In this document: positions 1 through 63,571 of the stretch, piece after piece
Layout of the letters: each line of letters begins with the position of its first letter
How positions within the stretch are numbered: position 1 is the first letter of the stretch
Source: Limisphaerales bacterium
GTDB lineage: Bacteria > Verrucomicrobiota > Verrucomicrobiia > Limisphaerales > DSYF01
Assembly: GCA_046290825.1 (NCBI GenBank)
Contig: JBKBTZ010000003.1
Location: forward strand, 9,881 to 73,880
DNA length: 64,000 nucleotides
Reading direction: 5' to 3'
Notes under the pieces: model-generated
What the model saw: only the letters and a program-made list of their open reading frames with translations
What the model was told of the DNA's origin: nothing
Databases searched by the model: none
Made by a program: the position numbers and the translations under genes

Positions 1-500
1 GCCGCGAGAATTTTTTCGCCGGTGGCGTAAGACCAGAGCGGCGTGCCGTCCGTGACGCTCAAGGCATGCAGCCGCCCATCGCCCGCCCCCACAATGACCC
101 GGCCACCCAACACCAGCGGCGGCGCTTCGACCGCCCCACCCGCCGGGAAGGACCACACCTTTGCGCCCGATGCCAAATCCAGCGCGTAAAGCTGCTGGTC
201 ATCCGAGCCGATGAAGACCTTGCCCCCCGCCACGACCGCCGACGATTTCACCGGACCGCCGGTCTTGAACGACCAGCGCAGGCGCAGCGGCAGCCGCAGT
301 TCGCCGGGAGCCACGCCGGTCAAGGCCGGGTTGCCGCGAAACTCGGGCCACTCCGTGACGGGGGGTTCCTGGCGCGGCGGGTCACTTTCGCGAACTGCTT
401 CGGAGACCTGCTCGCGACATCCCGCGCACAGACAGACAAATACCAGCGCAATGCCCGCCACGCTGACACGCGCCGCGGGCCAGAAAAACAACCGGTTCAT
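1..500 (-). CDS. PQQ-like beta-propeller repeat lipoprotein (BamB-like fold); C-terminus lies beyond the window
   Basis: Hand translation of the minus strand from ATG 500..498 gives MNRLFFWPAARVSVAGIALVFVCLCAGC (lipobox-like). It is followed by repeated blades: GGKVFIGSDDQQLYALD, GRVIVGAGDGRLHAL. It is absent from the ORF track because it runs off the window edge. Confidence 0.6.
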   Translation of the reverse strand, partial: MNRLFFWPAARVSVAGIALVFVCLCAGCREQVSEAVRESDPPRQEPPVTEWPEFRGNPALTGVAPGELRLPLRLRWSFKTGGPVKSSAVVAGGKVFIGSDDQQLYALDLASGAKVWSFPAGGAVEAPPLVLGGRVIVGAGDGRLHALSVTDGTPLWSYATGEKILA

Positions 501-577
501 GCAGGCGAGTATCGCGTTGTCGCGATGGTTGCGCAACGTCCCCGGCCGCCTGCCTGTGGTGGGCCCGGGCTGCCGCC

Positions 578-3500
578 TCAAGGCACCAGCCGGATCCGGT
601 AGTAGCGTTCGGGGGAGGTGGCCGCGTTGTCGGTGAAGTTGGTTTCCCCGCCGATACCCGTGATGACGCCGCCGAGGTTCTGCCACGCGCCCAAGACCAG
701 GTTGGTGCGGAATTCGACCTGATACCGCGCGCCCGGCACCGTCTGCCAGCGCAGATGGGCTGCGTTGCCGGAGACGGACGTTGCCGCAAGGGTGGGCGGC
801 GGGAATGCGGTGCAACACACACGGTTCGAGGTCACGAGGGTGACCGTCCAACCGCCCGGAATCGAGCCGCCCTTGGTGCTGAGGAAATCCTGAACATACA
901 GCTTCCACTCACCATTGGGCGTGGCCGCGAGGGCATTGACGCTGGTGCCGTAAGGTCCGGCTGGCGCGGGGGCGGTCAGCGGCGGGGCGCTGTTGTCCGT
1001 AGGCAACCAGGTGCCGGAGAGCAGCACGCCCCCATCGCCCGGAACGGGGCCGGAGGCATTGTCGTCAAAAACCAGTTGCGCGCTGCTGGCCGTCGCGGCC
1101 CCCGGGTAGCCCAGCAGCATGACCGTCTGCCCGCCGGGGCCTTCCGCCAGCACGGCGATGTCTGAAACGCGGGTGTGCGACAAACCATTCAGGCGGATGG
1201 TGGTTTTGATCACGTTTCCGTCCACGCCCGCCACGTTGACCCGTCCGGGATATGGCAGCGCGGTGCCGAAGGTGTTGATGGTAATGGGCGCCGTGCTGGT
1301 GAACTGCTGCGTCACGACCACCGGGCTGCCCATGGGAATGGCCACCACGGGCTGGCCGAGCACTGCCGCGTTGTCCGTCAGGCGAACCTGGGCGTTGACG
1401 TTGCTGGCGCACGGCCCGCTGGCGGTGAAGGTAAAGGCCCGGGTCACCATCTGGCCGGGGGCAATGACCCCGAGCGTCTCCGCCGGACCGGGCGCGAGGA
1501 CGCCGTTGGTCGCCAGCAAGGTGGCCAGGAGATTCGTGGTGGAGGCGAGACCGATGTTGCGGAAACGCAGTTCCATCGTGACCGTTTCGCCCGGGTCCAC
1601 GTTTTGGTTGCCGGGCGGACAGGATTCCAGAAGCACCGCGCCTCGTTCCACCACCAGCAGGGGAATCGGCAGCCCCGGCACCACGGTAAAATTGGTGTCC
1701 GAGACATCGTAGAAAATGTTGCCCGCCCCCTCGACCTTGATGCGGGCACGCGTCGAGGAAACCGGCGGCAGCACGACCTCGGCAGCGCCGGTGTTGGGCA
1801 CATTGCTGGCCAACAGGAATGGGAAATGGAGGCCTCCGTTGGTCGAGAGCCAGATGTTGACCCCGGCGGTGTTGATCGGCGCTGCCGCCGTGCCCGCGAC
1901 GTTCCACGTCACCGTCTGCACGTTGGACCAGGTAACCGCCGAGTTGGGCGCGGTGACCACGAATGGCCCGGCGTTGCTGATCACGGTGACGGTGGTGTCC
2001 GCGTCCGCCACGCCTCCGCCACCGGCGCGATTGTCGCGCACGGTAACGCGGAACTTCATGGTGCGGTTGAGCACCGGCAGCTTCTCCTGGTTCCAGTTGG
2101 TGTTGGCCAGCACACTGGTCAAGCGCGGGAAGAAGCGGGTTGGATTGTTGGTGGGCGGGAACGAGCGGAACAGCGGGCTGCTGCCGTTATCGGGGTCATT
2201 GAGTGACTGGGCCGCGCCGGTATCCATCTGCTCCCAGCAATAGGTGAGGGCATCCCCGTTGGGATCCGCGGCAATGGCAGTGAGCGCGAAGGGGGTCCGC
2301 GCCGGAATCACGTAGGCCGGTCCCGCATCCACCGACGGGGCGGCGTTGCCCGTGGGCACGTTGGCCGCGCAGGCGCCGCCGCTGCCGTTCAGGAACGCGA
2401 GAATCTCCGCCAGGCTGGTGGCGTGGAAATAGGGGTCGCTGTTGGGCTGCAGGTTGTTGGGGGCGCAGATGCCCGCGTAGGCCATGATGGTCGAACCGCT
2501 GCCCGGCTCGGTGGCGGTCGAGGCGTTCCGGTTGCCAAAACCGCAGGAGCCGCTGGTGGCGTTGAAGGTGTGGTTCGCGCCGAACTGATGTCCCATTTCG
2601 TGCGCCACGTAGTCCACCCAGAAGCTGTCCCCGGTGGGCGACGAACTGCCCGTCACTCCCTGGGCCTTGCGGGTGCTGCTGCACACGCTTCCCAGCGATG
2701 CCACACCGCCGCCACCCGTGCTGAACACATGGCCAATATCGTAGTTCGCGGAACCGATGATGCTGTTCACGGTGGTCTGGTTTTGCGTCAGCATGGTGAC
2801 CCCGTCATCGTTCGTGTAGGGATCGCTGCCGGGGTTGGTAAAGACCAGAAGGTCGTTGTTGGCCACGAGGATGAGCCGCACGGCAAACTCCCGCTCGAAG
2901 ATCCCGTTGATGCGGTTGATCGCAGTCACAATGGCCGCCTGGCCCTGGGCCACCGTGCCGCCGTGAAACTGCGTGTATTCTCCCGTGGCCGCGCAGGCCA
3001 GCCGGTAGGTGCGCAGCGTGGCGCCGAACAACGTGCGCTCCCCCTCGGGCCGGGGCAACACGCCCGGAACCGTTTCCCCACCCGGCACAAGACATTGGAA
3101 CGCTCCCGCTTCACGCCACTGCTCCGCCCGGCGGTAGCTCACATAATGCGTGGTGTCCCCGCGATACGCCGGATCCACATAAATGGCCCCTTCCGGCCCG
3201 AGGACCTGCGCATGGAAGCCGGCGGGAGTCACGTCGGCGCGCAGCGTGGTGGCCGGATCATCCACCGCCTCGCCCGCGAAGGTCTTGATCTCCGGGAATT
3301 TCACCGCCAGGCCCGGTTCCATGATGCTGGTCTCCACCACCCGAAACCACCGAACCTCCCCGTCCGGCAGGGGCACCGGCAGGAGCGCGCCCGCCGTGCG
3401 GGCCTGCCACGGTTCCCCCGAAGGCACCGCGCCCAGGCTCCCGCGAAACGCCGCCTCGTCCCATGCGAACATCGCTCCCCCCGTCGGCGCCACCCAACGC

Positions 3501-3658
3501 TCAACACCGGCACGGGACGCGGGTGGTTCCGGCAGATGCGTCCAAAGAATGTCAGACTGCGCCATCGCGGCGCCGGTCAGACCAATCAGGGCCAGACCGC
3601 CGGACCAGCGGCGAAGGCCGCGCCAAACAGGTAGGATAATTACGAGGATGAATTTCAT
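578..3658 (-). CDS. secreted reprolysin-like (metzincin) zinc metalloprotease with P-domain-like and C-terminal Fn3-like modules
   Basis: ORF 578..3952 trimmed to ATG 3658 (MKFILVIILPVW, signal-like). It has the HEMGHQFGANH motif (HExxHxxGxxH) and an IMAY Met-turn. It also has a DPNGDALTY module and CARDB-like and proprotein-convertase P-domain-like segments. Confidence 0.8.
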   Translation of the reverse strand: MKFILVIILPVWRGLRRWSGGLALIGLTGAAMAQSDILWTHLPEPPASRAGVERWVAPTGGAMFAWDEAAFRGSLGAVPSGEPWQARTAGALLPVPLPDGEVRWFRVVETSIMEPGLAVKFPEIKTFAGEAVDDPATTLRADVTPAGFHAQVLGPEGAIYVDPAYRGDTTHYVSYRRAEQWREAGAFQCLVPGGETVPGVLPRPEGERTLFGATLRTYRLACAATGEYTQFHGGTVAQGQAAIVTAINRINGIFEREFAVRLILVANNDLLVFTNPGSDPYTNDDGVTMLTQNQTTVNSIIGSANYDIGHVFSTGGGGVASLGSVCSSTRKAQGVTGSSSPTGDSFWVDYVAHEMGHQFGANHTFNATSGSCGFGNRNASTATEPGSGSTIMAYAGICAPNNLQPNSDPYFHATSLAEILAFLNGSGGACAANVPTGNAAPSVDAGPAYVIPARTPFALTAIAADPNGDALTYCWEQMDTGAAQSLNDPDNGSSPLFRSFPPTNNPTRFFPRLTSVLANTNWNQEKLPVLNRTMKFRVTVRDNRAGGGGVADADTTVTVISNAGPFVVTAPNSAVTWSNVQTVTWNVAGTAAAPINTAGVNIWLSTNGGLHFPFLLASNVPNTGAAEVVLPPVSSTRARIKVEGAGNIFYDVSDTNFTVVPGLPIPLLVVERGAVLLESCPPGNQNVDPGETVTMELRFRNIGLASTTNLLATLLATNGVLAPGPAETLGVIAPGQMVTRAFTFTASGPCASNVNAQVRLTDNAAVLGQPVVAIPMGSPVVVTQQFTSTAPITINTFGTALPYPGRVNVAGVDGNVIKTTIRLNGLSHTRVSDIAVLAEGPGGQTVMLLGYPGAATASSAQLVFDDNASGPVPGDGGVLLSGTWLPTDNSAPPLTAPAPAGPYGTSVNALAATPNGEWKLYVQDFLSTKGGSIPGGWTVTLVTSNRVCCTAFPPPTLAATSVSGNAAHLRWQTVPGARYQVEFRTNLVLGAWQNLGGVITGIGGETNFTDNAATSPERYYRIRLVP

Positions 3659-3911
3659 GGTTGTGGGGGTGGGCAAGGTTGCGCCCGGTCTAACCAAACC
3701 CAGGTCGGAACACAATCCGTGAATAGGTCGCGCTTGGGAATCAGGGCGTCCACACCAGTTGCCGTGAGGCAGGGCCGGGACAAGGCGGTCGGCAGAGCGC
3801 GGGAAATTCTTTCCCCCCACGCGGGTAGAGGCCTCCCCTGCTGACGGCACACAGCCAACTACCTCCCGACAAAAGCAATGAGCTCCACTGACCGCCCGCT
3901 CCAAGCGCCCA

Positions 3912-6900
3912 TCAAGGTTGCACCAGGATTCGGTAGAACCGCATCGGTTCATTCGGCGCCGCGTTGGTGATGCTGAGGAGCGTGTTGGTGCCGGGCACGG
4001 GCGCGCCCAGGTTTTGCCAAGAGCCGCTTGTGAGGTTGGTGCGGAATTGCACCTGGTAATTGGGGCCGGGCACTGCCGCCCACGTCAGCCGCGCCACGCC
4101 GTTCGACCAGGTGGTGCTGGTAAAGACCGGCGCGGGGAGCGTGCCGCAACAGACGGTGTTGGTGACCGCGGTCACAAACCGCAGCGTCCAACTGGCCAGC
4201 AATCCTGCGTCGGGCGACGCATAATCGAAGAAATAGAGGGACCAGGTGCCATTGGGTGAAACCGCCAACGGGGCCAGACGATAATCGTAATACCAACCCG
4301 GCGCCGGCGGGGGCAAATCGTAAGGCCCGGCTTCGCCATAGTAGTAATCGGTGGGCTGGTAGGTGCCCGAGGGAATTCCACCGGAATACGGCACGAGGCT
4401 CGCGGCCTCATCGTCGAAGGTCAACGTGATGCCGTTCACCGGCCCCGGATAGGTATAGCTCATGAGAATCGTGCGTTGTCCGTTGGGTGCGGCAAGCAAC
4501 ACGAACACGTCCTCCACGTAGGTGTGTGTCAGGCCGTTCAATGAAACGGTCATTTTGGTAACCGGGTTGGTCACACCGGACACGTTGATGGTAGAGGGAT
4601 ACGGCAGCGCGGTATTGTTGTCGCGGATGGTGATGGGCGAGGCGTTGTTGAAGACCTGCGTGACGACGTTGATCTGCGGCGCCCCTAGGTTGAACACCCG
4701 ACTGCGCGTGCCGTAATTGGCGGGCCCGTCGGCCAATTGCACCACCCCGGTCACCGCTCCGCCACACGGACCACCCGCCGTGAAGGTGAAGGGCCGCGAC
4801 ACGACGCCGCCGGGCGGAATGACACCATAGTTTTGCGGCGCACTCGGGAAATAGACCCCGTTGGTCGCCAGCAGCGTCGCCACCAGATTGGTGGTGGGCG
4901 CATTGCCGGAGTTGGTGATGGCCCAGTTGAGGGTCACCGTTTCATACGGGTCCACCACGCCGTTGGTCGGCAGGCAGCTTTCGGCCAGCAGCGTGACTGG
5001 CCCGACACTCAAATCGGGCGCAAGCGTGCTGATGGTGAAATTCACATCGGAGACGTCGTAAAAAATGCCGCCCGCCGCCTCGACCTTGATGCGCGCCTGC
5101 GTCGAGACCAGTCCCTGCACGTTGATGGTGCGTGAGCCGGTGTTGGGCACGTTGGTCGCAATCCAGTGCGGCCAGGTCTGCCCGCCGTCGGTGGAGAGAA
5201 AGATATTCACGTTGGCAACATTGATGGGCGATGACGCCGTTCCGGCCACATCCCATGTCACGGTGTGGGTATTGGACCACACGAGGGCGGTGTTGGGCGA
5301 AGTGACGCGGAAGGGCGCGCCAGTGTTGATCACATTAACCACGGTGTCGGCATCGGCCACACCGCCGCCCGCCGCGCGGTTGTCGCGCACCGTGACGCGA
5401 AAGTTGAGCGTGCGCGTGGTGGCGGGCAGCACCTCCTGGTTCCAGTTGGTGTTGGCGAGCACGCTGCTCACACGCGGAAAGAACCGCGTCGGACTGTTGG
5501 TCGGCGGGAGCGACCGGAACAGCGGGCCGCTGCCGCTGTCCATTCCCGTCAATCCGCTGGCCGGCCCCAAATCCCGCTGTTCCCAGCAATAGGTCAGCGC
5601 GTCGCCGTTTGGGTCCGTGGCGCTGGCGGTCAGGAAAAAGGGCGTCCCCGCCGGAATGGTGTAAGGCCCGCCCACGCTGACGGTCGGCGCGCTGTTGCCC
5701 GTAGCGGAGGTGGCCGCGCAACTCACGCTGGACAAAAATGCTTGGATCTCATCCAAGCTGGCCGTGTGAAAGTAGGCGTCCCCCTGCGATTGCAAATTGT
5801 TCGGCGAACAAATCCCCGCGTAGGCCATGATGGTGGAGCCGCTACCCGGCTCGTAGGCCGTCGAGGCATTCCGATTACCACCGCCGCAACTGCCGCTGGT
5901 GGCGTTGAAAGTATGGTTTGCGCCCAATTGATGGCCCATTTCATGCGCCACATAATCCACCCAGAAACTGTCCCCCGTTGGCGACGAACTGCCCGTCACG
6001 CCGCGCGCCTTGATTCCCGTCGTGCAAACACAGCCCAGGGTGGCAATCCCGCCCCCGCCCGTGCTGAACACATGCCCAATGTCGTAATTGGCGCTCCCGA
6101 TGATGGCGTCCACGGTGGCCTGGTTCTGCGATAACATCGCAGACCCGTCGAAGTTGTCATAGGGATCGGTCCCCGGGTTGGTGAAGACCAGCAGCGAGTT
6201 GTTGCCCACCAGCACCAGCCGCACGGCCAGTTCCTTTTCGAAAATGCCGTTGATGCGGTTGACCGCCGTCACAATCGCCGCCTGCCCCAAGGCCACCGTC
6301 CCGCCGTGAAACTGCGTGTATTCCCCCGTCGCCGCGCACGCCAGCCGGAAGGTCCGCAGCGCCGGCCCGGACTGCGTCTTTAATGCCGTGCCGCCGCCCG
6401 TTGCGATCGTTTCACGCAGGACAGCGCATTGCCACTCTTCCGCAAGCGGGACGTTGTCGCGCTTGTAGTAGCTCACCACATGATCACGGTCGCCCCGGAA
6501 CGCTGGATCCACGTAGATCGAGCCGTGCGGTGAAAGAATCTGCCCGTGAAAGCCGGCGGGCGTCACATCAAAGCGCGCCGTCGCCTCGGGATCGTCAATC
6601 CCCTCCCCGGCGTAAGTTTTGACGTCGGGAAACTGCGCCGCGAGTTCGGGCGCCATCACCGGCGTTTCCACAATCCGGAATCGCGCCGTCCCGCCGTCGG
6701 GCATCGGCACTGTTACCACTCGTCCCACCGCAGAAATCTCGGATGGTTCGGCCGGGGCAACCTCGGCGAGTTCCACCGCCAGTTGGGAATGGTTGACCCG
6801 AAACACGCCACCCCGCTGAGGGGCCACCCATCGTTCCGGCCCGCCGCGTTGGGCGGCAACTTCACCCAGATACTCCCACGGAGAAGAAGCTGCCGAGGAC

Positions 6901-7033: not shown

Positions 7034-8512
7034 TCAGTGGCCCGAAGCGCTGCTCAACAAACCGATCAACCCCGCCGGCGCGCAGCCCAGCGCCACCACT
7101 AGCACCGCCAACACCACCAACGTCAGGAGCGTCGCCAACGGCACTCGGATCGCATCGGCCCGGTCGGTCCCATCCGTCACATACACCGCCTTCAACACCC
7201 GCAGATAGTAGTAGAACGAAACCGCGCTCATCGCGATGGCCAGCACCACCAGCCACAACAGCCCGAGGTGCTTCGCCTCCGCCCCCACCACCGCGCTGAA
7301 CACAAAAAACTTTCCGATAAACCCCGCCAGCGGCGGAATGCCGCCCAGCGACAGCAGGAACACCAGCAAACACAATGACAAGACCGGTGCCCGGCGGCTC
7401 AAGCCCGCGAAGCTCGCGAGGGCATCATTCCCCGTCGCGTCCTCCACGACCTGCACGACGCCGAAAGCCCCAAGCGTGGTCACCGCGTAGGTGATGACGT
7501 AGAACAGCAAGGACGCCTGGCTCGTCTCCGTATTCGCCAGCACGCCGAGCAGCATGTAGCCCGCATGCGCAATCGCGGAATAAGCCAGCAGTCGCTTGAC
7601 GCTGCTTTGCGCGATGGCCGTGAGATTGCCCAGCACCATCGAAAGCGCCGCCACCACCGCCACCGTCGGCACCCAACCGGAAAGGAAACCGCGCCACACC
7701 CCGCTACCCTCCGCACCCGCGAACCCAATCATCATGACCTTTGCCAGAATGAAAAAGCTCGCCACCTTGGAACCCGTCGCAATGAACGCCGCGCTCGGCG
7801 TCGGCGCACCCTCATACGCGTCCGGCGCCCACAGATGGAACGGCACCGCCGCCACCTTGAACCCGAACCCGATCACCGTCATCACAATCGCGACGATCAA
7901 CATCGGGTCCAGCCCCTTGCCCGCCAGCCCGGTTGCAATCTCCCGCAGGTTCGTCGAACCCGACAGGCCATACAGCAGGCTGATGCCGAACAGCAGGCAC
8001 GCCGCCGCCATCCCGCCGAACAAGAAGTATTTCAGCGCCGCCTCCGCCGACCGGATGTTCCGCTTGTTGAACGCCGTCAGCACATAGAGCGAGAGACTGA
8101 GCAGTTCCAGCGAGATGAAGATCATCAGCAAATCCTCCGCACTCACGAGGAACATCATGCCCGCCGTCGCCAGCAGGATGAGCGCGAGATATTCGCCCAC
8201 GTGCTCGGTGAATTTGCTCGAAGTCGAAAGCACCACCGTGAAGATCGTCAGCCCGAGGATGGCCGCCTTGACCACGTTCGTCAGCGAATCCACCACGAAC
8301 ATGCCATTGGCAATGTTCGCCACGTCATGCCGCCCCACCGCCAGAAAGATGGCCAGCAGGCAGCCCACGCTGGCGATGGCCGCTCCCAGTCCGAATCGGA
8401 TGCGCACCGGCTGCTCGCGCAACGCCAGCAAATCCGCCGCCAGCACCGCCAGCGCCGTCAACACCACCGCCGTCTCCGGCGCGGCCAGCTTGAGTATTTC
8501 GAGATAGCTCAC
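7034..8512 (-). CDS. nuoN: NADH-quinone oxidoreductase subunit N
   Basis: ORF 7034..8563 trimmed to GTG 8512 (VSYLEILKL). GGGAGG lies 6 nt upstream and GTGA overlaps the nuoM stop. Polytopic ND2/NuoN-like sequence. Confidence 0.85.
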   Translation of the reverse strand: MSYLEILKLAAPETAVVLTALAVLAADLLALREQPVRIRFGLGAAIASVGCLLAIFLAVGRHDVANIANGMFVVDSLTNVVKAAILGLTIFTVVLSTSSKFTEHVGEYLALILLATAGMMFLVSAEDLLMIFISLELLSLSLYVLTAFNKRNIRSAEAALKYFLFGGMAAACLLFGISLLYGLSGSTNLREIATGLAGKGLDPMLIVAIVMTVIGFGFKVAAVPFHLWAPDAYEGAPTPSAAFIATGSKVASFFILAKVMMIGFAGAEGSGVWRGFLSGWVPTVAVVAALSMVLGNLTAIAQSSVKRLLAYSAIAHAGYMLLGVLANTETSQASLLFYVITYAVTTLGAFGVVQVVEDATGNDALASFAGLSRRAPVLSLCLLVFLLSLGGIPPLAGFIGKFFVFSAVVGAEAKHLGLLWLVVLAIAMSAVSFYYYLRVLKAVYVTDGTDRADAIRVPLATLLTLVVLAVLVVALGCAPAGLIGLLSSASGH

Positions 8513-10020
8513 AGCGCACCTCCCTTCGCCAGCAACCGTTGAAACAGCGGCGAGTTCAGGCACGGCTCAATCCAGTTCAGCAGCACGTTTGGGTAAAGCC
8601 CCACCAGCAGCGAAGTGCCGATCAGCAGCACCGCCCCAACCCGCTCCGGGACGGAGATCGGCTCCAGCTCGTGCGCGTGCTCGCCATCTGTCGAGCTGGT
8701 CACATCCGTCCCGTCTGCATAAAATCCCCGTTGCACCGCGCGCAACGTGTAAGCCACGCCCACCACGATGCCCACGCCCGCCAGCACCGCCGCCGCCGGA
8801 AAAGCCTTCCACGCGCCCATGAGCACCTGGAGTTCCGCCACAAATCCACTGAAGCCGGGCAGCCCCATCGAAGCCACGCCCGCGATGACAAACGTCACCG
8901 CCACGAACGGCAGCTTCCGGCTCAGGCCCATCAACTCCAGTTCGGTGAAGTCCCGCGTATGGGTCCGGTCATACAACATCCGGCCCACCACGGCGAACAG
9001 CAGCCCCGCGATAATGCCGTGCGAGAACATCTGCAACACCGCGCCGCTCAAGCCGACCGTGTTCAGCGTCGCCAGCCCCAGCAGCACGAAGCCCATGTGG
9101 CTCACGCTCGAATAGCCGATGACGAACTTGAAATCCTTCTGCACCAGCGCCACGCCCGCGCCATAGACGATGCCGATCACCGCCAGCACCGCGATGGCAG
9201 TCTTCCACATCGCCGCACCCTCGGGGAACAGCACCATCGCCACGCGCAGGCAGCCATAAGCGCCCAGCTTCATCACCACGCCGGCCAGCAACATCGAACC
9301 CGCCGTCGGTGCCGCCACGTGACCGGTCGGCGCCCACGTGTGGAACGGCCACAAGCCCGCGAGAATCGCGAACCCGACGAACGTCAGCGGGAAGGCCCAT
9401 TTCTGGAACTCCACCGGGAATGAAACTTTCGACAGCTCCACCAAATCCAGCGACGCGTGACCGAGTTGCCCCTTCGCCACCACCCAAGCCGCGATGAGTC
9501 CGATGAGCACGAGATGGCTGCCGACGAACGAATACAGCGCCAGCTTCATCGCGCCGTATTCCTTCCGCGTGCTGCCCCAGCGCGCGATGAGGAAATACTT
9601 CGGGATGATGGTCAACTCGTAGAACACGAACAGCAGCAGCAGATCGAAGCTGAGGAACACGCCATACACGCCGCCGATGAGCGCGAGGTAGAACGCGAAG
9701 AATTCCTTCGTCCGCTTCTCGATGTTCCAGGAAAACAAAATCCCCGCAATGGCTGCCAAGCCCGTTAGCACCACGAGCGTCAGACTAATGCCATCCGCCG
9801 CGAGATGATAATTCGCTCCCAGCGAAGGGATCCACGAGCAGTTCGTGATGGTCGCGATCTCGCCCGGATTGCCCTGCTGCAACGCGCCGATCAGCGCCAC
9901 GGCGAACCCGCCGATGGCCGTGAGCAGCGCCACCTTGCGCGCCGCCCGCGCGTCATCCCGCGGCAGGAGCATCAACACCAGCACGCCGAGAAACGAAATG
10001 TAAATGGTCCAAGCCAGCAT
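8509..10020 (-). CDS. nuoM: NADH-quinone oxidoreductase subunit M
   Basis: 503-aa ORF with ATG at 10020. ND4/NuoM-type antiporter-like subunit (WGSTRKEYGAMKLALYSFVGS). Confidence 0.9.
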   Translation of the reverse strand: MLAWTIYISFLGVLVLMLLPRDDARAARKVALLTAIGGFAVALIGALQQGNPGEIATITNCSWIPSLGANYHLAADGISLTLVVLTGLAAIAGILFSWNIEKRTKEFFAFYLALIGGVYGVFLSFDLLLLFVFYELTIIPKYFLIARWGSTRKEYGAMKLALYSFVGSHLVLIGLIAAWVVAKGQLGHASLDLVELSKVSFPVEFQKWAFPLTFVGFAILAGLWPFHTWAPTGHVAAPTAGSMLLAGVVMKLGAYGCLRVAMVLFPEGAAMWKTAIAVLAVIGIVYGAGVALVQKDFKFVIGYSSVSHMGFVLLGLATLNTVGLSGAVLQMFSHGIIAGLLFAVVGRMLYDRTHTRDFTELELMGLSRKLPFVAVTFVIAGVASMGLPGFSGFVAELQVLMGAWKAFPAAAVLAGVGIVVGVAYTLRAVQRGFYADGTDVTSSTDGEHAHELEPISVPERVGAVLLIGTSLLVGLYPNVLLNWIEPCLNSPLFQRLLAKGGAL

Positions 10021-10029
10021 GTTCAGTAT

Positions 10030-10223
10030 TTGGAGTGCGGTGACTTGTCACCGCTTTCACCGCTTTGGCGACTGGTCTCCAAAGCAGAGCCGCGTCCAGC
10101 GGCTCGACGAACAACGAAAGCCTGACGCTTCGCCGCCAGGCCGCCGCAAACAAATCGAACGCCCCGGGTGATTGACGGCGACAAGTCGCCTGCGGAAAGC
10201 GGCGACAAGTCACCGCACTCCAA
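10030..10223. repeat. about 194-bp palindromic element with terminal inverted repeats TTGGAGTGCGGTGACTTGTCACCGCTTTC / GAAAGCGGCGACAAGTCACCGCACTCCAA (family F)
   Basis: The arms at 10030..10058 and 10196..10223 are reverse complements. Each arm contains its own 8-bp hairpin (GCGGTGAC-TT-GTCACCGC). There are internal hairpins GCTTTGG..CCAAAGC and GGCGACAAGTCGCC. Confidence 0.75.
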
Positions 10224-10255
10224 GGCGGGCAGCCACCCCGCCACACCAGTTTCAA

Positions 10256-10285
10256 ATCCGTGTCTATCCGTGTTCATCCGTGGTT
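10256..10285. repeat. three tandem 10-nt units ATCCGTGTCT/ATCCGTGTTC/ATCCGTGGTT abutting the nuoM(2) stop codon
   Basis: Read directly from the sequence. A single related unit (CATCCGTGGTTA) follows the family F copy at 30409..30422. Confidence 0.7.
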
Positions 10286-11915
10286 AAAAATTCAGTTGCT
10301 CCACCAGCTTCACGACGGTCGCGTCCACCACGCCCAGCACGAGCTGCGGATACAGCCCCAGCACGAACATCAGCACCGTGCCCGGCAGCACGAGCAGCAG
10401 TTCGCCGGGCGACAAGTCAGGCAGGCGCGCCCACTTCTCGTTCAGTGGGCCGCAGAACACGCGCTGAATCAGCGTCAGCAGGAAAATCGCCGTCACGAGG
10501 ATGCCGATCGTGGAAATCGCCGCGGCCCACGGCGCGAGCGGAAACACGCCCTTGAAGATGAGGAATTCGCCGACGAACCCGTTCAGCCCTGGCAACCCGA
10601 GCGAGGAGAACAACGCGATGCCCATCAAGCCGGTGAACACCGGCACCACTTTGCGGATGCCGCCAAAGTCATCCAGCCCGCGCATTCCCCCGCTCCGCTT
10701 CTCCAGCAGGCTGACGAAGAGGAACAGCGCCGACGCCGTCAGGCCGTGGTTGAACATCTGGAGCAGCACACCGTTCAACGCGGCGGCTTTCTGGAGTTCC
10801 GGCTGGTTCACCGCCGTGGCCGCGCCGGCCGCCGCAAACATCGCGAGCAGACAGTAGCCAAGGTGGTTGATGGATGAGTAGGCCAGCATCCGCTTGAGAT
10901 CGCGCTGGGCGAACGCCGCGCACGCCGAGAGCACAATGGTCAGCACGGCGAGCCACAGCAGCGGCGTCAGCACGAGGCGGATTTGCTCGGGGAAGATCGG
11001 CAGCAGGATGCGGAGGAAGCCATACACGCCCATCTTCGACATCACGCCCGTGAGCAGCATCGTCACCGGGCTGGGGGCCTCGGAATACGCTGACGGCAGC
11101 CACGTATGAAACGGCACCACCGGCACCTTCACCGCGAACCCGAGAAACGCGCCACCGAAGATGATCAGCCCGAGCGTCTGGTAACTCAGCGTCTTCCAGC
11201 CGAGAGCATCGCCAAGTTTGGTGACGATTTCGCCGCGCTTGGCCATGTCCGAGAGTTCGATGAAATCAAAACTGCCCGTCGCCAGCCGCAGCGCGAGGAA
11301 GCTCAACAACAGCGCCACGCTCCCGACCATTGTGTAGATGAAAAACTGCGTCGCCGCCGGGCCGCGATTGGGTCCGCCCCAGAGCTTGATGAGGAAGAAC
11401 GCGGGGATCAGCGCCAGTTCCCAAAACAGGAACCAGTGGAAGAAATTCAGCGCCGTGAACGTGCCGAACAACCCCGCCTGCAACCACAACACCAGCGCGC
11501 CAAAAAGGTGGGCGTTGTCAACGCTCCCCTCACCCGCCCTTCGGGCACCCTCTCCCCGTCCGACGGGGAGAGGGCCGGGGTGAGGGGCCGCCCCGGCAAA
11601 TAGACGGTTGGAGGCCAGCAACGCCAGCGGCGTGACGATGGCCGTGAGCAACAGCATCAGCAGGCCCAGCCCGTCCACGCCCAGGCGGTATTGGATGCCG
11701 AGCGATTTCACCCAGTCGAACTGCTCGGTGAATTGCAGGTCACCCGACGCGGCGTTGAAGTTCTTCCACAAAAGCAGAGTCAGGCCGAGCGAGAGGAAGC
11801 TGAAGGTCAGCGTCAGCTTGCGCGCGAGCTTCTGCTGGTCACGCAGTCCAATGACCACAACCCCGCCGAAGACTGGCAGGAGCGTGAGGATGGTCAGCCA
11901 GGGAAAACCATTCAT
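10284..11915 (-). CDS. nuoM: NADH-quinone oxidoreductase subunit M, second paralog
   Basis: 543-aa ORF whose ATG overlaps the nuoL stop (ATGA). NuoM-type sequence (MNGFPWLTILTLLPVFGG.., WGGPNRGPAATQFFIYTMVGS). It carries a repeat-encoded insert, PHPGPLPVGRGEGARRAGEG. Confidence 0.85.
   Translation of the reverse strand: MNGFPWLTILTLLPVFGGVVVIGLRDQQKLARKLTLTFSFLSLGLTLLLWKNFNAASGDLQFTEQFDWVKSLGIQYRLGVDGLGLLMLLLTAIVTPLALLASNRLFAGAAPHPGPLPVGRGEGARRAGEGSVDNAHLFGALVLWLQAGLFGTFTALNFFHWFLFWELALIPAFFLIKLWGGPNRGPAATQFFIYTMVGSVALLLSFLALRLATGSFDFIELSDMAKRGEIVTKLGDALGWKTLSYQTLGLIIFGGAFLGFAVKVPVVPFHTWLPSAYSEAPSPVTMLLTGVMSKMGVYGFLRILLPIFPEQIRLVLTPLLWLAVLTIVLSACAAFAQRDLKRMLAYSSINHLGYCLLAMFAAAGAATAVNQPELQKAAALNGVLLQMFNHGLTASALFLFVSLLEKRSGGMRGLDDFGGIRKVVPVFTGLMGIALFSSLGLPGLNGFVGEFLIFKGVFPLAPWAAAISTIGILVTAIFLLTLIQRVFCGPLNEKWARLPDLSPGELLLVLPGTVLMFVLGLYPQLVLGVVDATVVKLVEQLNF
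11526..11587. repeat. 62-bp nested palindrome (family G): CCCCTCACCC..CCCTCTCCCCG-TCCGA-CGGGGAGAGGG..GGGTGAGGGG
   Basis: The outer 10-bp and inner 11-bp stems are perfect reverse complements. A near-identical copy lies at 63472..63532. Confidence 0.8.
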
Positions 11916-14068
11916 GACTTACGCCCCCACACGAGGAAGATGACCAGCACCACCAGCGCGACGCCGAGAACACGCAGGTAGGTTTGCACGCGGCCCGTGT
12001 GCAATTTGGACAGGCCGCCCCCGCCGCGCCGGATGCCCTCGCAGCCGGCGTCGAAACCCAGGTTCACCACAAATTCATCCGTGATGCGGTAGAGCCACGC
12101 CAGCCCGACCGTGATGCCGGACACAACCATTACCGCCCCGCCCCAAATCCAACGGTCTGCGAAATCGCACGCCTTGGCGAACCACGCGTTGAAGCGGATG
12201 ACGGTGGCTTCGTAAAGTTCATCCACGAAATACTTGTTCTTCAGCAGCGCGAAGATGTCGGGCCGCGCGACTTCGAGCACGTCCGGCTCCGCCGCCGTCT
12301 TGCGCTGACGTTTGCCGTAGAGCCACCAGCCAAGTCCGAGACCGGTGAACACGATGAGCGCCGAGGCGCCCATCAAACCGAGCGTGCCGGATTCGGTGAG
12401 CTTGCTGAAGTTGAACTCCGCGTGATGCCCGTTCAGATACGACTCAAACCACGGCCACGCGGGCGTGCCAATGATTCCCAGAAGCACGGCACAAACGGCG
12501 AGGGTGACGAGCGGCCACGTCATGACGCCGGGACTTTCGTGCGGCTCCTTGGAGTGCGCGGACTTGTCCGCGCTTTTCAAGAAGGCTCCGGTCGCGTGAA
12601 CGCCATCCGACTTCGCGTGGTTCTTGGAAAGCGGCGACGAGTCGCCGCACTCCACATGCCCGCCGCGATAGTGCCCGAAAAACACCAGCGCCACCTGCCG
12701 CGTCATGTAAAACGCGGTCAGCAGCGCGCCCGCGCAGCCGATGTAGAACGGCCAGTGCGACACCGGCCAGTTGTGCGCCGCGTGCAGGATTTCGTCCTTG
12801 CTCCAGAACCCGGAGAAGAACAGCGGGAAGCCCGCAAGCGCCAGCATGCCGACCGCGTAGGTCGCGAACGTCACCGGCATGAACTTCTTCAGCCCGCCCA
12901 TGTGCCGGATGTCCTGCTCTTCATGGCATCCGTGAATCACCGAGCCGGAACCGAGGAACAGCAGCGCCTTGAAGAATGCATGCGTAATGAGATGGAACAT
13001 GCCCACCGCCACACCACCGACGCCGAGGCCCATCATCATGTAGCCGAGCTGCGAAACCGTAGAGTAGGCGAGGATGCGCTTGATGTCATTCTGGGCGACG
13101 GCGATGGAGGCGGCGAAAATTGCGGTGAGTGCGCCAACCCAGGTCACGACCTGGAGCGCAGCAGTCACCGGCACACCGTCCGCCCCTGCCCCGCCTGCTC
13201 CCATCAACGGGAACACCCGCGCCACAAGGAACACGCCCGCCGCCACCATCGTCGCCGCGTGGATAAGCGCGCTGACGGGCGTCGGGCCTTCCATCGCGTC
13301 CGGCAACCACACGTGCAACGGCAACTGGCCGGACTTGCCGACCGCGCCGAGGAAGATGAGCAGGCCAATCGCGGTTGAAACGGCCATGCCCGCGCAAGTT
13401 GTCTTGGCAACCATCGCCGCGAGCGCAGATTGTTGCAGGCAGCCAGTGCCATCCTCGGTGTAAAAACTCAACGTGCCCGTTTGCGCGTAAAGCCAGACCA
13501 TGCCGATGAGCAGGCCGAGGTCGCCGATGCGCGTAGTGATGAATGCCTTCTTCGCCGCCGCCGCCGCGCTGGGTTTGTGATACCAGAAGCCAATGAGCAG
13601 ATAGCTGGTCAGGCCGACGATCTCCCACGACATGAACAACAGCAGAAGATTGTTCGCGATGACCACGCCGAGCATCCCCGCCGCGAACAGTGACAGGAAA
13701 CAGAAGAACCGCGTGAAATTCTCGTCGTGCGCCATGTAGCCGATGCTGAAGATGAAGATGAGCGCGCCGACGAACGTGACCATCACCAGCATCACCGCCG
13801 TGAGCGGGTCGAGCACCCAGCCAAGTTGCAGCCATTGCCCGCCAAACTGGAGCCAGTTGAAATTGAAGACCAAAGGCTCCGCCCCGTGCCCGCCATGCTT
13901 GAACGTCGCCGCCAGGGCACAAAGCGAGAGCAGGAACGCGCCGACCATCGAACCGACCGCAAGCGTCCAAGCCCGCGTCCGTTTCGGCTGCGTGCTGACG
14001 GCGATCAGCCCCGCCGCCAGCAAAGGCAGCGCGGGAATCAGCCAGAGGTTTTTTACGATCCAGATCAT
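11912..14068 (-). CDS. nuoL: NADH-quinone oxidoreductase subunit L (long form, 718 aa)
   Basis: ND5/NuoL-type sequence (MSWEIVGLTSYLLIGFW, HESP, C-terminal amphipathic helix plus final TM). ATG 14068 lies 1 nt after the vapC stop. Confidence 0.9.
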   Translation of the reverse strand: MIWIVKNLWLIPALPLLAAGLIAVSTQPKRTRAWTLAVGSMVGAFLLSLCALAATFKHGGHGAEPLVFNFNWLQFGGQWLQLGWVLDPLTAVMLVMVTFVGALIFIFSIGYMAHDENFTRFFCFLSLFAAGMLGVVIANNLLLLFMSWEIVGLTSYLLIGFWYHKPSAAAAAKKAFITTRIGDLGLLIGMVWLYAQTGTLSFYTEDGTGCLQQSALAAMVAKTTCAGMAVSTAIGLLIFLGAVGKSGQLPLHVWLPDAMEGPTPVSALIHAATMVAAGVFLVARVFPLMGAGGAGADGVPVTAALQVVTWVGALTAIFAASIAVAQNDIKRILAYSTVSQLGYMMMGLGVGGVAVGMFHLITHAFFKALLFLGSGSVIHGCHEEQDIRHMGGLKKFMPVTFATYAVGMLALAGFPLFFSGFWSKDEILHAAHNWPVSHWPFYIGCAGALLTAFYMTRQVALVFFGHYRGGHVECGDSSPLSKNHAKSDGVHATGAFLKSADKSAHSKEPHESPGVMTWPLVTLAVCAVLLGIIGTPAWPWFESYLNGHHAEFNFSKLTESGTLGLMGASALIVFTGLGLGWWLYGKRQRKTAAEPDVLEVARPDIFALLKNKYFVDELYEATVIRFNAWFAKACDFADRWIWGGAVMVVSGITVGLAWLYRITDEFVVNLGFDAGCEGIRRGGGGLSKLHTGRVQTYLRVLGVALVVLVIFLVWGRKS
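12549..12654. repeat. short (about 106 bp) family F element inside the nuoL coding sequence
   Basis: Arms TTGGAGTGCGCGGACTTGTCCGCGCTTTTC (12549..) and GAAAGCGGCGACGAGTCGCCGCACTCCA (..12654). It is translated in frame as ECGDSSPLSKNHAKSDGVHATGAFLKSADKSAHS. Confidence 0.7.
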
Positions 14069-15025: not shown

Positions 15026-15606
15026 GCTTTCCTCCCTGAAGTTGGAGGGTGGAGGATGGAGGATGGAGCGGACGGCTCTGCCATCTTCGATTCTCGATCT
15101 GCCATCTTCGTCCCCGGCACCTCGTCGCGCATTGCAATGATGACCGCCCCAATCATCGCCGCCGTGAGCAGCAGGCCCATGACTTCGAGCGGCAGGACGT
15201 ATTTGCTCATCAGCGCGTCGCCGATGTTCTTCACGGTCACGTCCGGCGCGGCGGGCGTTTCCTTCGCGATTGCGTTGCTGTTCAACACGGCCCAGCCGAG
15301 CGCGGTAAACACGAGGGCGGAGATGATGATTCCCGCAATCCATCCCGGTGCGAGGACGGCCTGGTTTGGCGTGTCACCACTGCGCGTGAGCAGGATGGCA
15401 AACACGATGAGAATGGCGACCGCCCCGATGTAAACGAGCACCTGCGCGAAGCCAACGAACTGCGCGTGAAGTTGCAGAAACAGCGCCGCGAGCCCCGCGA
15501 ACGTCACCACGAGCGACAGCGCGCAATGAACGAGGTTGCGCAGGCTCATGGCTGCCGCGGCGGAAAGCAGCGTCACCAGTGCGAGGATTAGGAATACGGG
15601 GGTCAT
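15022..15606 (-). CDS. nuoJ: NADH-quinone oxidoreductase subunit J
   Basis: The ORF track start at 15618 is TTG. ATG 15606 ([19 protein letters not shown]) lies 1 nt after the nuoH stop. ND6/NuoJ-like TM pattern. The C-terminal 33 aa are repeat-encoded. Confidence 0.8.
15044..15110. repeat. heptamer array GGAGGGT/GGAGGAT/GGAGGAT/GGAGCGG followed by a 21-nt direct repeat TCTGCCATCTTCG.. (family E)
   Basis: Read directly. The second part carries a partial complement (CCATCTTC) of the first. Confidence 0.6.
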
Positions 15607-30176: not shown

Positions 30177-30208
30177 ACTCGAAGAAACCCGACAATCCCG
30201 GCAGCCAT

Positions 30209-30390
30209 TTGGACTGCGGTGACCCATCACCGCGTTCCGTGAGCGACCTGTCGCTGTCGAATTGCCGCCGCAGCAGTTTTGGCGGCAGCCTGAACGCGAG
30301 GCGTCAGGCACCTGTCATTAGTCGCGTGTCTGAACGCGGCACTGCTTTGGCGAGCAGTCACCAAAGCAGCCCCTGGTCGTTGCACTCCAA
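30209..30390. repeat. diverged family F element (termini TTGGACTGCGGTGAC.. / ..GCACTCCAA)
   Basis: It shares the terminal inverted repeat and the internal hairpin CTGCTTTGG-N10-CCAAAGCAG with 10030..10223. It is followed by CATCCGTGGTTA, as at 10276..10287. Confidence 0.55.
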
Positions 30391-30435
30391 AATCCAAGTT
30401 TCCTCTTGTCCATCCGTGGTTACTCTCTTCGCAAC

Positions 30436-63429: not shown

Positions 63430-63471
63430 AGAGCGCTGGCAACAACGTCGTGGCATCGCGAACGCTCGCCG

Positions 63472-63532
63472 CCCCTCACCCGCCCTTTGGGCACCCTCTC
63501 CCCTTCCGAAGGGGAGAGGGAAGGGTGAGGGG
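63472..63532. repeat. 61-bp nested palindrome (family G), intergenic copy
   Basis: CCCCTCACCCGCCCTTTGGGCACCCTCTCCCCTTCCGAAGGGGAGAGGGAAGGGTGAGGGG, nearly identical to 11526..11587. Confidence 0.8.
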
Positions 63533-63571
63533 CCAAGCGTTGATGGCCCGCCGCGCATGGATGGAATTGCC

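Follow-up and report, generated by a model that had tools for sequence, protein, structure and literature searches.

A hairpin-repeat doublet carried in frame within a variable loop of nuoL in a Limisphaerales bacterium

The nuo locus and the element within nuoL

The subject of this study is a short palindromic repeat that lies in frame within nuoL in a 64,000-nucleotide stretch of DNA from a Limisphaerales bacterium; this whole stretch is called the window (W). Loci of relatives are given L numbers, and clusters of homologous proteins P numbers. The host gene occupies positions 11912-14068 on the minus strand and encodes a protein of 718 amino acids, assigned to NuoL by its translation, its hydropathy and the NCBIfam model NF005141 (625 bits, against a cut-off of 556). 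It belongs to an operon with the order nuoA-B-C-D-I-H-J-K-L-M-M-N, which does not contain nuoEFG and encodes a complex-I-like enzyme with no NADH-oxidizing module in cis. Because nuoEFG are missing from the operon, the earlier note's description of nuoL as an essential respiratory gene is an assumption.

Repeat, family-terminus and covariance-model comparisons placed the whole element at 12548-12656 and identified it as an inverted doublet of a hairpin family, here called the GGAGTGC family. An inverted repeat of 106 bp had been reported at 12549-12654. The repeat was indeed there, with arms of 34 nt at 12550-12583 and 12621-12654 that were 82% complementary and separated by 37 nt. The length needed revision, because the family termini, TTTGGAGTGC...GCACTCCAAA, put the limits at 12548/12549 and 12655/12656, giving 107 bp from TTGGAG to CTCCAA and 108-109 bp when the flanking T/A is counted. 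In the window, TTGGAG carries a T-to-G mutation at its first position.

Both arms can in addition form hairpins of their own, GCGCGGAC-TT-GTCCGCGC at 12554-12573 and GCGGCGAC-GA-GTCGCCGC at 12631-12648. The gene-proximal (5', or left) arm lies at 12623-12659 on the minus strand, where its hairpin is GCGGCGAC-TC-GTCGCCGC (12631-12648), and is read VECGDSSPLSK; it scored 40.7 bits (E 2.3e-11) with an arm covariance model, R1, that was built from metagenome copies only. The spacer, defined by comparison of nucleotide identity, occupies 12584-12620 on the minus strand and is read approximately NHAKSDGVHATGAF. The gene-distal (3', or right) arm lies at 12545-12581 on the plus strand (50.8 bits, E 8.5e-15), has the hairpin core GCGCGGACAAGTCCGCGCAC at 12554-12573 and is read on the gene strand as LKSADKSAHSK. 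In the mRNA sense the element folds at -62 kcal/mol (z = -3.1).

The translation around the insert is ...FFGHYRGGHV-ECGDSSPLSKNHAKSDGVHATGAFLKSADKSAHS-KEPHESPGVM..., with the frame undisturbed and the open reading frame (ORF) intact. The insert corresponds to residues V472-K507, between transmembrane helix (TM) 13 (~438-464) and the PHESP sequence at 509, where TM14 starts; it thus stands just before the conserved HESP motif, as the earlier note had said. A predicted diagnostic tryptic peptide of the insert is SDGVHATGAFLK. We take the FWSKDEIL sequence of NuoL to be TM12 in E. coli numbering (NuoL K399/D400); it precedes the helix ending in FFGHYR. Downstream of the loop, hydropathy and secondary structure gave hydrophobic helices at 515-533 and 561-579, followed by the long region of the lateral helix, with the last TM at 697-715. 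Helix HL spans TMH15 to TMH16 on the cytoplasmic side (PMC7419157). Because two hydrophobic helices separate the loop from HL, and HL is cytoplasmic, the loop that bears the insert is probably TM13-TM14 and probably cytoplasmic, in agreement with the earlier proposal. An assignment as TM14-TM15, which would be periplasmic, was considered and dropped, since FWSKDEIL as TM12 together with two helices before HL leads to TM13-TM14. An AlphaFold2 model of NuoL made from 43 close homologs was poor overall (mean predicted local distance difference test score, pLDDT, 45.8; predicted template modeling score 0.38), and only its secondary structure was used: it gave coil at residues 465-512, where pLDDT was lowest, with a predicted TM helix on either side. 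The best solved homolog is cyanobacterial NdhF1 (6hum_F), whose equivalent loop is short (~22 amino acids) and rich in H.

A dispersed family of hairpin repeats

In the window the motif GGAGTGCGGYGACNNGTCRCCGC, with three or fewer mismatches allowed, had eight matches, all within 10032-10221, 12626-12653 and 30211-30238; shuffled sequences gave an expectation of 0.06. R1 found exactly six arms, making three doublets, in the 64 kb. These results bear out the claim that the nuoL element and the copies near 10030 and 30209 belong to one family. The nuoL arms (50.8 and 40.7 bits) are as strong as those of the copy at 10030, a 194-bp doublet with extra internal hairpins between the tandem nuoM genes (10026-10062 on the plus strand and 10191-10227 on the minus strand; 53 and 44.3 bits). 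Measured as the 10030-10223 doublet, this copy has 29-nt arms that are 97% complementary. Orthologous copies were present in L087 and L081 and not in L083. The copy in L087 keeps the right-arm hairpin by two compensatory pair changes (GCTGCGAC/GTCGCAGC vs GCGGTGAC/GTCACCGC). The third doublet, also intergenic, is degenerate (30205-30241 plus, 30358-30394 minus; 21.8 and 19.4 bits) and sits upstream of an acyltransferase/AMP-binding gene at 30406-32601.

Metagenomes were scanned with the pattern TTGGAGTGC-NNN-GAC-NN-GTC-NNN-GC, which leaves the inner stem free. The family proved abundant in soil metagenomes: at least 120 stretches contained it; 80 loci were listed, with 112 copies among them. 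The family hairpin has the form TTTGGAGTGC-NNN-GAC-NN-GTC-NNN-GC-TTT, with conserved tails (5' TTTGGAGTGC and 3' TTT) and a 25-nt core that makes an 8-bp stem with a 2-nt loop. The trailing TTT was more than 90% conserved, though absent from the scan pattern. In 97 of the 112 listed copies the free stem triplets were perfectly complementary, where chance would give 1 in 64, and at least eight triplet variants occurred (GGC/GCC, GGT/ACC, GCC/GGC, GCT/AGC, GCG/CGC, TGC/GCA, GCA/TGC and GAT/ATC). A covariation score of 0.258, against 0.066 in shuffles, with 99.6% pairing, came from 50 hand-picked copies and is biased accordingly; the unbiased figure is the count of 97 in 112. The 80 listed loci contained 23 inverted doublets by a strict definition and 39 by a looser one, 57-314 bp apart, with no dominant size. 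The arm consensus, nnnTTTGGAGTGCGGnGACTTGTCnCCGCTTT, contains neither GTAG nor CGTC on either strand and is open, without a stop codon, in all six frames.

R1 also found matches in the nuo loci of distant Verrucomicrobia metagenome-assembled genomes (MAGs; L043, L021, L078, L010, L036 and L029); in L021, L043 and L078 the copies lie in intergenic spacers just after nuoL. It gave no match in any Acidobacteria nuo locus examined. The nuoL element had no match in Rfam or in a plasmid collection, and a full-text literature search for the family motif and its peptides found no relevant paper. A protein-database search with a 40-residue alignment of six element peptides yielded seven word-sharing candidates and no match, and is not a census. 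The hairpins appear to form an untagged family not yet described in the literature. A different arrangement was seen at 10453-10652 of L102, where one plus-strand GGAGTGC hairpin is followed by four minus-strand copies with 43-bp spacing, a BIME-like cluster rather than a doublet.

Distribution among NuoL orthologs

The nearest genome representatives put the window in Verrucomicrobia subdivision 3/Limisphaerales, and the best NuoL matches were 74-78% identical. In an alignment of the 120 closest NuoL protein clusters, the stretch between FFGxYR and PHESP was hypervariable; in other NuoL proteins the loop was non-homologous and 7-54 residues long (32 loci where it could be extracted). Both arms were present in P0001 (L083), P0002 (L081) and P0004 (L086), which were 96.6, 90.9 and 91.4% identical, respectively, to the window's NuoL outside the loop. 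Their elements have the same position and 107-bp length as that of the window, in a 43-residue loop, and the reading frame was kept in four independent metagenome assemblies of relatives, as the earlier note would lead one to expect. The right arm alone occurred in P0056, P0066 (L208) and P0070.

In a neighbor-joining tree made without the loop, L083, L081 and L086 clustered with the window, and P0003 (L085) was nested within this group. Because the loop of L085 (GGKSSHSSHSKSGSHSSSK) retains AAGTCCTCGCACTCCA, a 15/16 match to the right arm, L085 is a deletion derivative. L208, whose NuoL is ~82% identical outside the loop, lies on a separate branch; it keeps the right arm with the identical stem variant, has lost the left arm, and has spacer codons upstream of the right arm that are homologous to those of L081 (HRSGSDL vs HPSGSDL). 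From the sharing of the element by L083, L081 and L086, the remnant in L085 and the right arm in L208, we conclude that the insertion in nuoL is old, has been kept through considerable divergence of the host gene and is decaying by deletion.

The element segment was found in none of the 80 genome representatives and was missing from ~113 of the 120 close homologs. These findings agree with an insertion rather than ancestral protein sequence, as originally suggested: most orthologs lack the element, and their loops are non-homologous. The converse, that the segment is ancestral NuoL sequence which resembles the repeat by chance or convergence, is hardly credible. Many relatives have H/S/K-rich loops that contain KSAH-like strings (for example, GHEEKSAHGHSAH); however, both arms match R1, a model of unrelated metagenome copies, at E values of 1e-11 to 1e-14 and in inverted orientation, and the loop cannot be aligned outside the carrier clade. 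The R1 match and the absence of the segment from homologs contradict the presence of an ancestral peptide in orthologs, which the earlier note had named as the finding that would count against insertion.

The best explanation, and in our judgment very probably the right one, is that a repetitive extragenic palindromic (REP) doublet element was inserted into the loop DNA of nuoL and has been translated, tolerated and vertically inherited. A non-autonomous REP-doublet element, resembling REPINs and MITEs (miniature transposable elements with inverted repeats) and belonging to a Verrucomicrobia-wide family, would have entered the DNA of the TM13-TM14 loop in an ancestor of this Limisphaerales/subdivision-3 lineage. 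The reading frame would have carried on through an inserted block of 36 codons, the consensus arm being stop-free in six frames, and translation would add the hydrophilic segment VECGDSSPLSK...LKSADKSAHSK to a length-variable, probably disordered loop. NuoL presumably stayed functional, and the insertion would have been passed on vertically. Afterwards the spacer drifted almost neutrally and the 5' arm decayed or was deleted in some lineages. The 3' arm hairpin has stayed constant at the nucleotide level, which points to a constraint that acts on the hairpin as DNA or RNA.

Decay of the insert and constancy of the 3' arm

Among the four full copies, nucleotide identity was 80-90% in the left arm and 90-100% in the right arm. 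The spacer (a 47-nt interval) was 66-72% identical among W, L083 and L081, and 23-30% identical between these and L086, a level that marks it as non-homologous. The left-arm hairpin was perfect in the window and L081, broken in L083 and L086, and deleted with its arm in L208. In a five-way codon alignment of W, L083, L081, L086 and L208, the 20 nt GCGCGGACAAGTCCGCGCAC were the longest invariant nucleotide run in the 2.1-kb gene, although they lie in its most variable loop; with four taxa, the right-arm run was not an outlier within the gene. Only 33% of the amino acid-identical degenerate codon columns were codon-identical across the five lineages. This pattern suggests nucleotide-level constraint, or a repeat-specific maintenance process, on the right-arm hairpin.

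Several observations weigh against a REP doublet that was simply transposed into the gene and passively inherited. The ADKSAH sequence is encoded by six consecutive identical codons in five lineages (p ~0.002 with codon-specific rates), and L081 and L208 share ten identical codons (p ~0.005), values that are modest and partly post hoc because they come from few codons in one of three inspected segments that became notable after L208 was added. Such frozen synonymous sites in the 3' arm count against the explanation because a purely neutral passenger predicts otherwise. No recurrent neighbor protein or transposase was found near the 112 copies by all-against-all clustering of 1534 ORFs from the 80 listed loci, most of which are on short contigs; this did not extend to a search for Y1 transposases among the ORFs of the window or in the source genome. 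Target-site duplications were absent from the nuoL and 10030 copies, the two inspected: the flanks are GGGCAT|...|GGAGCC for nuoL (gene strand) and CAGTAT|...|GGCGGG for 10030-10223, with no direct repeat. The "empty" state at the 10030 site in L083 is of the deletion type and reveals no target-site duplication. The ortholog alignment proposed in the earlier note defined the carrier clade; it gave no empty nuoL site, because outgroup loops could not be aligned, and hence fixes neither the limits of the insertion nor a target-site duplication. Finally, the right arm occurs in the distant clade of L208 while intervening clades lack it, which implies either several losses or replacements or else recombination.

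The constancy of the 3' arm bears most directly on exaptation, in which the 3' hairpin or the whole 107-nt structure works as RNA or DNA in the nuo operon and the peptide is a by-product. It might act as an exonuclease barrier, as a processing site that adjusts the mRNA levels of upstream nuo genes relative to downstream ones, as a site of protein binding, or by making translation pause once TM13 is complete. The invariant run within the most variable loop, the frozen synonymous sites (p ~0.002-0.005) and the stability of the mRNA-sense fold (-62 kcal/mol, z = -3.1) are consistent with such a role, as are the recurrence of the family in nuo intergenic spacers (10026-10227 in the window; after nuoL in L021, L043 and L078), the compensatory changes in L087, and the unrelated hairpin families that occupy the same NuoL loop in relatives (see below). 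On the other hand, the 5' hairpin is broken in L083 and L086 and its arm deleted in L208, and in L085 half of the 3' hairpin is missing too, so that the structure is dispensable. In addition, no hairpin is recognizable in the H/S-rich loops of ~96 of the 120 closest homologs, Rfam contains no family for the element, and the p-values come from few codons in one of three inspected segments. We consider exaptation quite unlikely, and insertion of a translated and tolerated REP doublet remains the preferred explanation.

Other repeats in the NuoL and NuoM loops

The same NuoL loop carries unrelated hairpins in other relatives. In L004, L007 and L026 it contains GTAG-tagged hairpins, such as GTAGCAGCCGAC-GTGA-GTCGGCT, in inverted pairs that encode ...SSGRESAH...EPTHVGCY..., and peptides of this type were present in ~14 of the 120 NuoL homologs. 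Another GTAG hairpin is found in the loops of L003 and L005. The loop of L209 (P0022) contains GTAGGACAGGCG-TCC-CGCCTGTC and an inverted partner, encoding RRTGVPPVS...LRQAGSLSY; this hairpin recurs as an intergenic inverted pair in L002, whose own NuoL loop has yet other palindromes. Assignment of these loops to the GTAG class is based on form (GTAG, a 7-8-bp stem and a 3-4-nt loop, in inverted pairs) and on few nearby copies. Near nuo loci, GTAG hairpins were about threefold more frequent than in shuffled sequence (34 vs 11 in 1.6 Mb).

A comparable site was found in the nuoM next to nuoL in the window (10284-11915, minus strand), where an in-frame palindrome of a different family at ~11520-11600 includes a perfect 13-nt hairpin (11548-11574) and encodes GAAPHPGPLPVGRGEGARRAGEGS within the TM3-TM4 loop. 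The orthologs in L085 and L208 have an empty site (517 vs 543 amino acids), and those in L081, L087 and L209 have different repeat-like peptides there. More copies of this palindrome family (CCTCACCC...CTCTCCCC...GGGGAGAG...GGGTGAGG) lie at 63470-63550 and 58731-58757 of the window. In NuoL of P0002, a 66-residue in-frame insert of the same PLP..GEG family occupies a different loop (residues 303-368; L081 10907-11104), and L081 has intergenic copies at 15270-15302 and 15398-15419.

The reuse of one loop raises the alternative that the nuoL element arose not by transposition but by recombination, gene conversion or template switching with a hairpin already present, the loop acting as a "REP trap" in which families overwrite one another. 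Three unrelated families (the window, L209 and L003 types) end right before GA(A/G) CCN CAC GAA, which encodes E-P-H-E, and a fourth ends 4-5 codons earlier. The L086 element has a spacer non-homologous to that of W, L083 and L081, yet its arms, position and 107-bp length are the same. The lack of a target-site duplication and the identity of the right arm in L208, despite its distant clade, point in the same direction. Against these points, none of the copies could be named as a donor, conserved protein sequence may simply start at the shared junction, and equal length is enforced by the reading frame. We regard such an origin as unlikely and retain transposition of a REP doublet as the probable route.

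A broader proposal, possible though doubtful, is that the NuoL TM13-TM14 and NuoM TM3-TM4 loops are long-lived REP traps in subdivision-3 Verrucomicrobia, with hairpin families unrelated in sequence (three or more GTAG-REP types and other palindromes besides the GGAGTGC family) repeatedly landing or overwriting one another at the same junction and at least one hairpin (12554-12573) held constant at synonymous sites among lineages that differ at ~18% of residues outside the loop. If true, this would imply hairpin-targeted integration or conversion, or selection for structured nucleic acid at fixed points inside genes for complex I membrane subunits, rather than mere tolerance. Recurrent colonization of the loop together with synonymous freezing of one hairpin could indicate targeting or function; neither is established.

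Repeats in other genes

About 7 of the 112 listed arms lie within verified genes, with the host genes confirmed by Pfam. A UvrA-like ORF (L141) has two full doublets of the family in the same frame, LECGDLSPLSKNAPGS...KSGDPSPHSK and WECGDLSPLFKNAPGS...KSGDKSPHSK; the one measured is 107 bp. This ORF (positions 2-5074, minus strand; >1690 amino acids) has further repeat-looking segments, such as GQASRLS...RRDTRPT and GKMPPSTSAKMADAT. An amidohydrolase (L108) contains a tight doublet in frame, and two orthologous MFS-spermidine-synthase-like proteins (L134 and L146) contain a single arm in frame. In four or five independent events, the arms within genes use the ECGD.../...SGDKSPHSK frame and not the two Arg-rich frames. 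Because the consensus arm is open in six frames and one is used, we suggest that selection filters intragenic arms by frame.

A hairpin of the GTAG-tagged type (GTAGCGCAGGC-CGCCCT-GCCTGCG) was also seen at ~31199-31222 on the minus strand, inside the acyltransferase and AMP-binding ORF at 30406-32601. It is read GAQAGRPAL and may be an intragenic REP singlet.

The nuo operon in related genomes

The two tandem nuoM paralogs of the window, at 8509-10020 and 10284-11915 on the minus strand, are separated by the 194-bp doublet described above. Foreign genes were seen inside the nuo operons of relatives (L081 8147-9841 and 13987-15126; L086 2846-4875), where they separate nuoK from nuoL or one nuoM copy from the other and encode a PIN toxin-antitoxin pair, DUF2130 and HEAT-repeat proteins. 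Many NuoL proteins from Acidobacteriaceae/Terracidiphilus MAGs (contig matches L009-L080) were 58-67% identical to that of the window and ranked with the nearest genome representatives, which suggests that the nuo operon without EFG is common to Verrucomicrobia and Acidobacteria, possibly through transfer between the phyla. Some NuoL matches had implausible organism names (Klebsiella, Akkermansia, Bifidobacteriaceae), for which binning or labeling errors are probable.

Implications

In free-living bacteria rich in REPs, selfish hairpin repeats would steadily supply proteins, core bioenergetic membrane proteins included, with new translated loop segments, and such an insertion can outlast substantial divergence of its host gene. 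For annotation, Cys/His/Ser-rich segments such as ECGDLSPL...SGDKSPHSK, EPTHVGCY, RQAGSLSY and PLPxGEGxGEG should be read as repeat-derived and not as functional motifs or metal sites. Within the carrier clade the insert is found whole, half deleted or as a remnant, states that make up a natural time series of its decay, and the frozen right-arm hairpin suggests constraint at the nucleic acid level on some intragenic REPs. Because the phenomenon has already been published, the gain is incremental.

Comparison with known systems

The earlier note had called the element MITE- or REP-like. The family has the features of a REP: a short palindromic stem-loop in many copies (at least 120 stretches, with 97 of 112 listed copies complementary). 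Its inverted hairpin doublets with a spacer are those of a REPIN, and its consensus arm lacks the GTAG or CGTC tag. Terminal inverted repeats, as in a MITE, are present at nuoL and at 10030-10223; uniform size and a parent insertion sequence (IS) are not, since the doublets range from 57 to 314 bp and no IS with the family termini was found in the listed loci. With an intact NuoL ORF, orthologs that lack the element and a defined carrier clade, the nuoL copy is also an intragenic repeat predicted to be translated. Because the arms are self-hairpins with covarying stems, the sizes are spread over 57-314 bp and there is no target-site duplication, the name REP doublet (REPIN-like) suits the nuoL element better than that of a classical MITE with terminal inverted repeats.

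Bacterial MITEs that give rise to in-frame fusions, such as ERIC, BOX, Correia and the cyanobacterial elements (PMC10969869), are likewise small and non-autonomous, with terminal inverted repeats and read-through in genes. Unlike them, the nuoL family lacks a target-site duplication, a uniform length and an identified parent IS, and its termini are self-complementary. With the REPIN-RAYT system (Bertels & Rainey 2011, PMC3116915; Nunvar et al. 2010, PMC2817692) the family shares two inverted REP hairpins set a short distance apart, a large number of copies, covarying stems and vertical inheritance over long times within a lineage. It differs in lacking the GTAG tetranucleotide recognized by RAYT, and no RAYT/Y1 transposase was seen near any listed copy, the genome as a whole not having been searched; REPINs, moreover, are described as extragenic.

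Rickettsia palindromic elements (RPEs; Ogata et al. 2000), as summarized in PMC10969869 and PMC3733652, are mobile palindromic repeats found in frame in unrelated housekeeping genes. In the summary in PMC10969869 they occur both in and between genes, and the peptides they encode are considered to leave room for the fold and function of the protein. The nuoL repeat is similarly palindromic, in frame and predicted to be translated as an extra segment. The host differs in phylum and, unlike an intracellular bacterium with a reduced genome, is free-living and has a large one. RPE-1 is ~150 bp with a conserved encoded peptide and RPEs are reported to be very often genic, whereas doublets of the nuoL family span 57-314 bp and ~7 of 112 listed arms are genic.

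The closest precedent is the catalog of intragenic GTAG/CGTC REPs by Di Nocera, De Gregorio & Rocco (2013; BMC Genomics 14:522, PMC3733652). These are short G+C-rich hairpins that are frequently paired as head-to-head dimers; most are intergenic, but some, the minority, lie wholly within ORFs whose function is known and add 20-30 or more residues to the product (PMC3733652). The verrucomicrobium Opitutus terrae had the largest number of intragenic GTAG repeats; in it, both uvrA genes are hit twice and a subunit of NADH:ubiquinone oxidoreductase is hit too (PMC3733652); a search of the supplement for "NADH" did not find nuoL among the matches. The UvrA-like ORF of L141 resembles these REP-decorated uvrA genes. 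In Rickettsia conorii, subunit D of the Mrp antiporter, a member of the same superfamily as NuoL, holds a dimer of CGTC-class hairpins, and the authors argued that intragenic REP inserts occupy permissive linkers or loops (PMC3733652). The NuoL loops of relatives (L004, L007, L026, L003 and L209) carry GTAG-tagged REP dimers of this kind, whereas the family in the window has neither tag. Persistence across lineages and the reuse of one loop by several families are covered here and not in that study. The general phenomenon is thus already published, with RPEs and the GTAG/CGTC REPs as clear precedents; the present case differs from them in an untagged and apparently undescribed family, a series of persistence and decay across lineages, and the reuse of a single loop by several families.

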